Origin: Porphyrobacter sp.
GTDB lineage: Bacteria; Pseudomonadota; Alphaproteobacteria; Sphingomonadales; Sphingomonadaceae
Assembly: GCA_031410495.1 (NCBI GenBank)
Contig: JANNZG010000010.1
Coordinates: 37,854-101,853, forward strand
Length of the DNA stretch: 64,000 bases
Reading direction: 5' to 3'
Each line of letters begins with the position of its first letter. Positions within the stretch are counted from its first letter, which is position 1. A program made the position numbers. Below are positions 27,001 through 30,000 of this stretch, in pieces.

Positions 27001-30000
27001 GTACGAGCCCTCACAAACACTTTCCAGTCCAGTATTCGCTTCATGTCCTTAACGCGGACGGGTCGCTCAACCATCATGAGTATTTAGAGCGAGAATTGCG
27101 GCTTCCCGATCGGCTGGTCGGAAGGCTAGGGGCTGACATCGGCGATGAGGGCAGCGTCATTTCTTGGCACGCTTCATTCGAGAAAACACAGAACAAGGAG
27201 ATGGCACGCCTTTTTCCTGATTTTTCTGACTTTCTTGCTGGCCTGAATGATCGCATGGCCGACCTCGAGGATGTCTTCAAAACGGATTATGTCGATGCCC
27301 GTTTTGACGGCTCAACGTCCATCAAGAAGGTGCTGCCCGTGGTCTGCCCCGAACTCAGCTACAAGGGGCTCGATGTGCAGGATGGCGCTTCGGCTATGGA
27401 TGCGTGGCAGAAGATGGTGACAACCCAAGGCGAGGAGAGCGACAAGATCGCTACCGCGCTCCTTGGCTACTGTAAACTGGACACCTTTGCGATGGTCGAG
27501 ATCTATCGATTCTTGGTGCGGCTGACCGCTTCAACTTCCTTCCAGTCGTAAATGGTCAGAAGATCATCGACAAAAGTAGCCTTCACTTCAACCAGAGCTC
27601 CCATTGGAACCCATCCCATTGTGTCGTCCGGCACAAAGGGGGCGTAGCGCGCACCGTCGGTGGTCTCGAAGGTGACGGCTCGCCCACCATGAATTTCAAT
27701 CATCCGCCCGACGTACGTTTCGACTGTCTCAGTGTTCCGCACCACCCAGCCTTCGAGAAGATAGTCTTGTCCATATCTGGTCAGCGGACCTCGAAGATGA
27801 AAGTCGGCCAGTACGTCGTGAATTGGAGGGCTCTTTCCGTCGGCAATGGAGACCTGGTACTCGCGCTCGCTCGTCCGGACGACCGGGGTATCTCCCTCGA
27901 ATACGAGAATGCCGGTAGCATTGAAGTCCAGTGGCACGTAGGCGGAACCGGATTGAGCGAATTGGGGTGCGGTACCAGCCTGCGGCGGACCGCCGGCAAA
28001 CACCGAGGAAAATTCTTCCAGAGAAGAGCCTGTAACGTCCGCCAAGAGCTTCCGTTCTTTTGCAATCGCAGGGATGGCATCGCGTTCTACGAGGAACTCC
28101 TCTCTTGAGGTGCGAAAGCCACAGCGAGCTGCTCCGCTTTCAATGCAAGCCTTTGCGGTCTCAGTAGCAAAGGAGCTCTCACTTTCACCCTTAAGCATAT
28201 CCGCCCCTGCGAGCGCGAGTGCTGCAAGCGCAACCGCCGGACCCGTCGCTGGATCGCGAAGAATGATCATGAGACGGCTGCGGAAGCTGCCCCGACCAAG
28301 GTAGACCACCTCGATCGCCTCGACCTGCTCCTCACTGAGGTAGGCTTCAACGAAGTGCAGGAATTCTCTGCCAAGCGCCAGCGCATGTCTGGCGCTGAGC
28401 CGACCATTTGTCTGGATGAAGAATTCGATCTCGGCGTCGGAAAAGGGCTGCATATTGACATAGTGACCGAAGTCACGACCGCAGGGCAATAGATTTCACC
28501 AAGGGCACCAGCAGGGAGTCCTCCCTGCACAAGCTAGCTGATGTTCGAGAAACCCAGAACATCGCTTTGCCTCGTATTCATCCCTCAGCGGGCCTCAAGT
28601 TTTTAGATGGTTTCGAGTACGATCATACAGTAGCGACGATTACGGACAGGGCATCTACGGCTGCCAATGTTCGAACTCGATCCCAAAAACCTTTGGGCTC
28701 AACTGATAGTTAGAGCCTTTGGGATCGATGTAGGCGACGATGAACTCAGACGGCGGGTTGGCGGCTACCGCCTTGAATGAGCGACCGCCCGCTTGCGTTA
28801 GCGTAGAAGGCTGTTGGCCGCCGATAAAAAATGCCATCTCGCGGCGCACGCCGAGCGCTTCTTTCAGCAGATCTTTGGTGAACTTTGCGACAGCCTTGCA
28901 CTCGACACCTAGCGCAATCTCATCGTGTGCGGGGTAGCCGATCGTCGCGGTAGTCACAATGATGTCCAGCTCATGTCGGCGACTATTGTCCCAGCCCGAC
29001 GTTGTATGGTGATGACCAAGTGTGTCGAACTCAACGTTCAGAAATATCCGATACATAGTGCTGTTCGAGAAAGGCGCCTTCATCTCAAAGTGCGCGTCGC
29101 TCATTTTGATCATGCCTGGCGAGGCTTTGAACTTAAGCTGGGTGGGCGCGGCACTTGAGGGCACGAAAGTCAGGGTAAAGCCCCTGTTTTTGAGTTCAGT
29201 CAGAACCTTGGATAGCACGAAAAGCTCGTAGAGCTTGCCATCCTTCAAGGCAGCCAAAGCTTTCGATCGCCGGGTTGCTTGGCGCGATAGACAGCGAACA
29301 CCCGCCGAATTTCTTTGATTGCCCGTCCCCTAGCCCCGGTATCCATTAAGCGTCCTCCCCAAAGCGGAAGCCGTCTTCCATAAGGCGGTGGACTATGCGG
29401 GTGATGTCATGGCGCAGTTCGGCAAGGTCAGGCGCGTCGGCAAGATCGATCTCGCGCGGCCCGCGATCGTCTGCGAGTTCAACCGCTGCGCGAGACGGAC
29501 CTTCGCCTAGGACCATGCGACGTATTACATTGAGCGAAGTCTCAGCGACGCTGCGATCCTGTATCGCGAGGTGGCGTTCAAAGGCGTTGAGCATCTCGAT
29601 GAGACGTTTCTGCGGGTCGTAGAGCTCGATCTCGCCAGTCTCAGGGTTAGTGACAGTGTAATGTCGCTCATCGGCAAGGTCAGGTGCTCCCGAGAGCGAG
29701 AGCTCTTCAGCCACCACTTCAATCAGCGCGCGAAAGTCCTCGTCGTCCATCCATCACCCACATCATACAATTCAGTCGAAGCGCCAAACTTATCAGCTAG
29801 TAGCCTATCGGGCAGAAATCGTGGAGCAAGCGAAACTGCTTCGCAGCGTGGTTCAAAAGCCCTTCGGCGTATGCTCAGGACGCAACGCATGCCCCCCTTG
29901 GCGAGCGGCTTCCATTTAGGGTTTAAGGTCACCGGCTGGAGTGGAGAATACTACTCGAGTGGGCCATAATGAGATCATATGGGTTGCAGGTAGACGAATC

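Follow-up and report, generated by a model that had tools for sequence, protein, structure and literature searches.

An acidic protein gene coupled to a predicted PD-(D/E)XK nuclease gene: a candidate partner-gated cassette of integrative elements and defence islands

The A-N locus of Porphyrobacter sp.

At the right end of a low-GC island in Porphyrobacter sp. (assembly GCA_031410495.1, contig JANNZG010000010.1, positions 37,854 to 101,853; this 64,000-nucleotide stretch is the window analysed here) lie two overlapping genes on the minus strand. The first, called A, encodes a small acidic protein, and the second, called N, encodes a predicted nuclease of the PD-(D/E)XK superfamily. Together they are a previously uncharacterised two-gene nuclease cassette, probably a variant on the theme of a nuclease gated by its partner. 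The features of the locus, in window coordinates, are:

29346..29750, minus strand: gene A, an intact open reading frame (ORF) for an acidic protein of 134 amino acids (aa)
29344..29348, minus strand: TAATG stop/start overlap of A and N, read from the sequence
29245..29346, minus strand: 5′ fragment of N, 33 codons (MDTGARGRAIKEIRRVFAVYRAKQPGDRKLWLP) followed by TGA, in the frame of the coupled ATG
29255..29258 (about 29256), minus strand: one-base deletion that breaks N, located by DNA alignment to the sister island L022 and to Aureimonas
28655..29257, minus strand: core of N, a 200-aa ORF with the whole predicted PD-(D/E)XK catalytic domain, in a frame different from that of the 5′ fragment
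29225-29227, minus strand: Glu codon of the GKLYE motif of N
28964-28975, minus strand: H-E-x-D of the RRHELD motif of N, with the Asp codon at 28964-28966
28895-28903, minus strand: E-C-K of the GVECK motif of N, with Glu at 28901-28903 and Lys at 28895-28897
about 28838-28846, minus strand: RRE of N

The TAA stop codon of A (29348-29346) shares one base with the ATG start codon of N (29346-29344). Nearly all relatives have similar A/N junctions, either TAATG, TGATG or ATGA (overlaps of 1-4 nt) or gaps of a few bases. A sequence-only reading of this stretch had described the TAATG coupling, the acidity of A (32 D/E versus 15 K/R) and the E...ELD...ECK motifs of N, all of which are present on the minus strand. 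It had also supposed that the nuclease needs its frame restored, and N is indeed interrupted, with one base missing at about 29256.

The 5′ fragment of N corresponds to the first 30 residues of P0001 and other intact homologs of 230 aa. Intact relatives of N are 217-242 aa long and are encoded in a single frame, reading ...DRKLLAALKDGK... At the break site the window has AAGCTT-TGGCT, while the DNA alignments show AAGCTTCTCGCT in L022 and AAGTTGTTGGCC in Aureimonas; the window is therefore short by one base. Over the 10.5 kb shared by the window and L022 there are eight single-base gaps, of which three fall between genes and four cancel out in two pairs. The gap near 29256 is the sole uncompensated indel in a coding region. 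A mutation or an assembly error fits these alignments better than programmed frameshifting does, and N in this genome is a pseudogene or is mis-assembled. With N split and A intact, the cassette in this genome is probably dead.

A programmed -1 ribosomal frameshift at CGA AAG would hold the expression of a toxic nuclease low, and this codon pair does lie just upstream of the break, where a -1 shift would restore the frame. However, the frame of 217-242 aa is uninterrupted in the intact homologs (P0001-P0120) and in the sister island, which is 93.6% identical and has CGG AAG CTT CTC at the break site. Since the window lacks a base and the break is not a conserved feature, programmed frameshifting is scarcely credible and was rejected.

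The TGA that ends the 33-codon fragment overlaps a TTG of the core frame (TTGA, 29245-29250, minus strand). It is speculative, but termination and reinitiation at this TTGA could yield an N core that lacks about the first 34 residues.

Three other copies of the cassette are also damaged. In L019 (5544-6608), as in the window, N is broken beside an intact A, here by one frameshift. In L020 (5599-6667) N has two frameshifts and the stop codon of A is lost. Both of these come from long-read metagenome-assembled genomes (MAGs), in which sequencing error is possible. In Bosea sp. 117 (L021:5578-6156) both genes are degraded and N ends after about 50 residues.

The predicted nuclease family

The N family has a distinctive signature, G37-K38-x-Y40-E41, H125-E126-x-D128, P139, E149-C150-K151, K158 and G166-x-R168-R169-E170, which is 91-100% conserved in 127 full-length representatives. 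The putative catalytic residues E41, E126, D128, E149, C150 and K151 are 98-100% conserved in the same set and invariant or nearly so among 104 aligned members. Their arrangement is that of the PD-(D/E)XK motif, with an acidic residue on helix 1, an Asp on strand 2 and E-x-K on strand 3. In the AlphaFold2 (AF2) model of an intact homolog, which has a predicted local distance difference test score (pLDDT) of 85.8, the secondary-structure elements follow the order α-β-β-β-α-β. E41 is placed on the helix of residues 37-54, D128 on the strand of residues 124-132, and E149 and K151 on the strand of residues 144-151. The helical extension at the N-terminal end, roughly 35 residues long, is modelled with low confidence.

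A Foldseek search of the Protein Data Bank (PDB) with this model gives weak matches, the best having an E-value of 0.013 and a template-modelling (TM) score of 0.30, and none reaching E <= 0.001. The top matches are restriction-fold nucleases, among them NucC, Can2, BstEII and NucS, and such nucleases fill ranks 1-26 except for rank 20. The nearest solved folds, NucC (7zgv, 6uxf, 6p7o) and Can2/Card1, resemble N in the predicted order of the core and in the placement of the motif, and NucC is of similar size (about 230-240 aa). N differs from the known PD-(D/E)XK families in having the extra invariant residues H125, C150, K158 and R168-R169-E170 and the N-terminal helical extension. Since N has the motif and its modelled fold is suggestive of the superfamily, it is best regarded as a new PD-(D/E)XK family. 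Among 1.84 billion representatives the family accounts for 354 clusters at 50% identity, with nearly all members 210-240 aa long. Most are basic, with a median isoelectric point (pI) of 8.9.

The A of the window and the core of N were scanned against Pfam, NCBIfam and PADLOC, and A, P0001, P0276 and P0254 (an A-N fusion) against PHROGs. Scans with lenient cut-offs were made in Pfam with 32 N and 35 A members, and in PADLOC with 35 A and 104 N members. None of these four libraries has a usable match to A or N, even at the lenient cut-offs. The system models of PADLOC-DB v2.0.0 give stray matches only (E > 0.004), and the PADLOC family CARF_PDDEXK matches one of the 104 N members marginally (E 0.0083). 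Profile searches of the PDB sequences with three alignments also gave no match to A or N. A search of the literature for a defence or toxin-antitoxin pair made up of an acidic partner and a PD-(D/E)XK nuclease found no description of A-N.

The acidic partner

The charged residues of A give it a pI of 4.44 and a net charge of about -17. Its homologs, which have 130-141 aa, are similar (median pI 4.55, median net charge -13), and the acidity is kept across the family, with 15 alignment columns at least 70% D/E. The AF2 model of A has a pLDDT of 90.1, which is high over nearly the whole chain, and consists of long helices and two β-hairpins. Foldseek comparisons of this model with the PDB and BFVD returned only noise, with no meaningful structural neighbour. 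No helix-turn-helix, ribbon-helix-helix or AbrB domain was found by Pfam in 35 A members, even at E <= 5. A also has no match in the PDB, BFVD or Pfam to known DNA mimics such as Ocr and ArdA, with which it has only the conserved negative charge in common.

A conserved block upstream of A may contain its promoter:

29800..29830, minus strand: possible promoter, CTTGCTC-N16-TAGGCT

The CTTG and CG-TA columns of this block are invariant in four relatives. A sigma-70 promoter scan gave nothing at 29800..29830, and the promoter and terminator scan gave nothing above shuffled background. Codons 6-16 of A (29703-29734) hold one copy of an imperfect direct repeat of 32 nt, and the other copy (30148-30179) lies across the island end at 30161. 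The copies agree at 26 of 32 bases, compared with 21 for the best of 100 shuffles. The repeat is not present in L022.

Pairing of A and N

In all 36 loci examined, an A homolog lies directly upstream of N or is fused to it. These loci span Alpha-, Beta- and Gammaproteobacteria, Nitrospirales, Spirochaetia and Gemmatimonadales, and include one megaplasmid and one metagenomic scaffold labelled as phage. A scan of one genome per species provided 21 of them, and the others were fetched through N homologs, very distant N members and A homologs. A is upstream of N in each of the 21 genome loci. No other ORF of the window is common to them, which rules out a third conserved gene in the crown clade, the 19-member group that holds the window. 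The pairing holds from either side, in that queries with A also recover N, and it is far beyond chance. Co-occurrence of homolog pairs was a check proposed in the sequence-only reading, and the result goes against one refutation it had envisaged, that the genes do not occur together elsewhere.

The two proteins also diverge together. Pairwise identities of A and N correlate with r = 0.84, a value reached by none of 2000 Mantel permutations. A always diverges faster, with a mean identity of 31% compared with 45% for N.

In one lineage the two genes are naturally fused. The fusion protein P0254, of 389 aa, is encoded on three independently assembled metagenome contigs (L032:8001-9170, and also L033 and L034). 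Its first 100-160 residues or so match the A profile, with an E-value of 4.5e-5 in hhalign (residues 1-99) and 1.4e-9 in hmmsearch (residues 1-162). About 2 kb downstream of the fusion gene is a two-partner-secretion (TPS/ShlB) locus, and about 6 kb downstream begins a gene for a filamentous haemagglutinin that carries a Colicin-DNase/WHH toxin domain.

A very distant A-N pair is found in MT837022.1 (L042:541-3672), an unverified 10.7-kb scaffold labelled Bacteriophage sp. It sits just downstream of the gene for a 570-aa Walker A protein (GSTGGGKS) that looks by eye like a HerA/DUF87-type ATPase.

Genomic setting

The cassette is the last coding cargo of the island in the window:

30068..30161, no strand: right end of the low-GC island, defined by the end of L022 homology and the GC step

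Collinear homology to the sister island L022, at 93.6% identity, stops at 30161, and the GC content steps from about 55% to about 67%. The pair had been read as the last cargo before attR, and of this claim the boundary is upheld by the homology end and the GC step. The inward neighbours of the pair are an unknown 328-aa ORF, a DUF2779/Cas4-like protein and SIR2-HerA. L022 has the same gene order, plus HigBA. The 328-aa ORF (27503-28489, minus strand) lies just downstream of N and shares 49 nt at its 3′ end with the DUF2779 gene, which converges on it. It has no match in Pfam, NCBIfam, PADLOC or PHROGs and is conserved only in L022. No methyltransferase gene lies beside A-N in the window, as the sequence-only reading had stated.

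Defence or mobile-element neighbours are present in at least 13 loci. The defence genes include SIR2-HerA, AbiE, Shedu, RES, GmrSD, MmeI-like, type I and III restriction-modification (R-M), BrxL and JetA; a radical SAM protein and AAA_13/AAA_15 ATPases were also listed as defence neighbours. Integrases, relaxases and transposases represent the mobile elements. A 750-870-aa AAA_13/SMC_N ATPase gene adjoins the pair, in varied orientation, in three loci of the crown clade (L023:6669-9143, L025:10869-13118 and L029:6683-9229).

The distribution of the pair is patchy. Searches of 60 relatives belonging to the genus and order of Porphyrobacter sp. and of 400 further genomes of the class turned up no N, and the 72,556 plasmid records and 50,697 phage records gave one match each.

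Genes for Tle1-like/DUF2235 hydrolases recur beside the pair in three loci (L006, L018 and L038). With the TPS/ShlB toxin locus near the fused form and the position of the pair at the end of the element in the window and in L030, they would suit an inter-bacterial toxin pair, that is, an effector with its immunity protein or chaperone, or a repair or recombination function of the mobile element. However, N has no delivery domain, most loci show no secretion-system genes, and no association with integrases or recombinases is conserved. Immunity genes also normally follow the toxin gene, and the gene downstream of N is not conserved. We regard either function as quite improbable.

Loci with methyltransferase and helicase genes

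Four deep-branching loci hold A-N within operons that also encode a methyltransferase and helicases (L013, L016, L010/L031 and L012, the last cut by the end of its contig):

L013:2273-10526, methyltransferase-A-N-helicase locus
L016:1818-8727, methyltransferase-A-N-helicase locus
L031:5915-13666, methyltransferase-A-N-helicase locus
L012:40-2493, methyltransferase-A-N-helicase locus

They depart from the methyltransferase-free arrangement of the window and branch outside the crown clade. In these loci A is preceded by a large N6_N4 methyltransferase gene, whose product has about 1000 aa, an unknown C-terminal domain and a match to MTase_III in PADLOC. This gene overlaps or nearly touches A in L012, L013 and L016, while a 232-aa gene lies between the two in L010/L031. 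Genes for superfamily-1 (SF1)/UvrD helicases are found 3′ of N; in L013 and L016 a few bases separate them from N, and in L010/L031 two small genes intervene. Since A-N occurs inside such operons, the cassette can belong to a restriction-like machine, and an adaptor role for A is possible.

The combination resembles type III R-M (Mod and Res) in that a Mod-like N6_N4 methyltransferase, A-N and SF1 helicases stand in one operon, so that methylase, nuclease and motor functions would, from the gene content, be supplied together. It differs in that the motor is of the UvrD/SF1 type rather than superfamily 2 (SF2), and the predicted nuclease is a small protein in its own right, paired with an acidic one. 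No Res gene is among the genes examined in L013 and L016. It is possible that the deep-branching operon encodes a type III-like restriction system that has not been described before and has no classical Res subunit.

One alternative would extend this role to the whole family. A-N would then be the nuclease arm of restriction-type systems, A would be an adaptor or assembly subunit that joins N to the methyltransferase/helicase machine rather than an inhibitor, and the stand-alone pairs would be leftovers or solitary restriction modules. The gene order in L013, L016 and L010/L031, with the methyltransferase before A and the helicases after N, the methyltransferase in L012 and the deep branching of these loci all favour it, and the weak structural neighbours of N include BstEII and R.BspD6I. 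However, the operon contains neither a methyltransferase nor a helicase gene in at least 28 of the 36 loci, among them the window and all of the crown clade, and the neighbours there vary from locus to locus. A restriction nuclease without a methyltransferase would require some other means of self-protection, and A has no recognisable interaction or DNA-binding domain. As an account of the whole family, this is rather unlikely.

Comparison with known systems

Well-known pairs of nuclease and inhibitor include barnase-barstar, colicin DNase-Im and NucA-NuiA. The fold of A matches none of these inhibitors, and the gene order in colicin-type immunity pairs is opposite to that of A-N. Even so, A-N is like type II toxin-antitoxin and nuclease/immunity pairs in having a small acidic partner and a basic nuclease, coupled genes, a partner that diverges faster, and a decayed nuclease beside an intact partner. 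It also has the layout of type II toxin-antitoxin loci, with adjacent, co-oriented genes that overlap or are closely spaced, the small gene first. Unlike type II antitoxins, A has no DNA-binding region and no disordered toxin-binding region.

These features bear on whether A-N is a classical addiction module, which would stabilise an integrative element by post-segregational killing and have no role in phage defence. The antitoxin-like order, in which a small first gene overlaps the second, the location at the edge of integrative or conjugative elements, the decay of the toxin gene with A kept, and the faster evolution of A are all to be expected of such a module. However, A lacks the DNA-binding domain that autoregulation would need, its whole chain is modelled with confidence as a folded protein, plasmids almost never carry the pair, and a stable fusion fits poorly with a labile antitoxin that has to be degraded. 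Pure addiction is, on balance, an unlikely function.

The fusion P0254 resembles Shedu SduA, in which N-terminal sensor domains are carried on a PD-(D/E)XK core, and CapRel, in that a regulatory N-terminal module is joined to a C-terminal effector. Unlike in Shedu and CapRel, the regulator of A-N is a separate polypeptide outside this one lineage. L028 has a Shedu gene among the neighbours of A-N, and defence islands are a context common to both. SduA_C (PF14082, DUF4263) has no match to N at E <= 5 in 32 members, and PADLOC shows no Shedu match. Activation of the NucC/Can2 type is not indicated either, as N has no PADLOC match to NucC or Can2 beyond the single marginal CARF_PDDEXK one, and CARF or cyclase genes are absent from the neighbourhood annotations.

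The sequence-only reading had proposed a system that is either toxin-antitoxin-like or modification-dependent. The first description is partly supported, in that the genes are coupled, co-diverge, are fused once, carry a nuclease signature and lie in a defence or mobile-element context. Modification dependence finds no support: N lacks a reader domain, and A, an acidic protein, has no domain for binding DNA. In particular, N has no match to Mrr, SRA, EVE or GmrSD, as a type IV (Mrr/McrBC/GmrSD-like) reader would have, and consists of the bare catalytic core and the helical extension.

A proposed partner-gated nuclease cassette

Our preferred interpretation, to which we give about even odds in its full form, is that A-N is an obligate, self-contained, two-gene PD-(D/E)XK nuclease cassette gated by its partner, which travels as accessory cargo on integrative elements and in defence islands. 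The role of the cassette is probably defence, while the manner in which A acts, by inhibiting or by sensing, is inferred. N would be a metal-dependent nuclease of roughly 230 aa, with catalysis by E41, H125-E126-x-D128 and E149-C150-K151, and A is predicted to be a folded acidic protein of a fold unseen in solved structures. Translational coupling would allow A to be made first and in step with N, and A would bind N, most likely one to one. In the most likely mechanism A would hold the mostly basic N in check, perhaps by masking the face that binds DNA. A cue from infection would cause A to be lost or to change its state, upon which N would cut DNA. The gate may be of the immunity-protein or antitoxin type, or it may be a sensor that is built in, as it is in defence proteins that fuse toxin and antitoxin. 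The complementary charge of the two proteins, the gene order, the copies in which N is broken and A intact (the window and L019) and the precedent of fused antitoxins all point to gating. In fused CapRel, the antitoxin-like domain activates the toxin without needing to dissociate (PMC10440598).

Several observations weigh against partner gating or against a role in defence. A is well folded and has no DNA-binding domain, unlike classical type II antitoxins. Binding or inhibition of N by A is a deduction, and the structure models are of single chains. A is retained even where a methyltransferase is present in the operon, which is as compatible with a role in adapting or assembling as with inhibition. 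Support for the fold of N is statistically weak (E 0.013, TM 0.30), and of the four broken copies, the two from long-read MAGs may owe their breaks to sequencing errors. Plasmids hardly ever carry the pair (1 of 72,556), the defence-island context is guilt by association, and several loci border ordinary housekeeping genes, as is expected at the edges of islands.

A more specific proposal, which must be considered tentative, is that A-N is an unrecognised anti-phage system composed of an acidic gate or sensor with a new fold and a nuclease of a new PD-(D/E)XK family, and that in the deep-branching subset it also serves as the nuclease arm of a type III-like methyltransferase-helicase restriction system. 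Most A-N pairs, that of the window included, have no methyltransferase.

Implications

The A-N pair is rare and patchy and its family is small, and since the copy of N in this genome is broken, the practical meaning for Porphyrobacter sp. is modest. The family is in none of the libraries searched, and defence-finding pipelines built on them would therefore miss it. If A-N is a working defence or toxin module, it would represent a new nuclease family together with a partner fold that has no known relative, and the question of how an acidic protein gates a nuclease of the restriction fold would become testable. The fusion and the methyltransferase-helicase form could then reveal the way in which larger restriction machines acquire stand-alone effectors.

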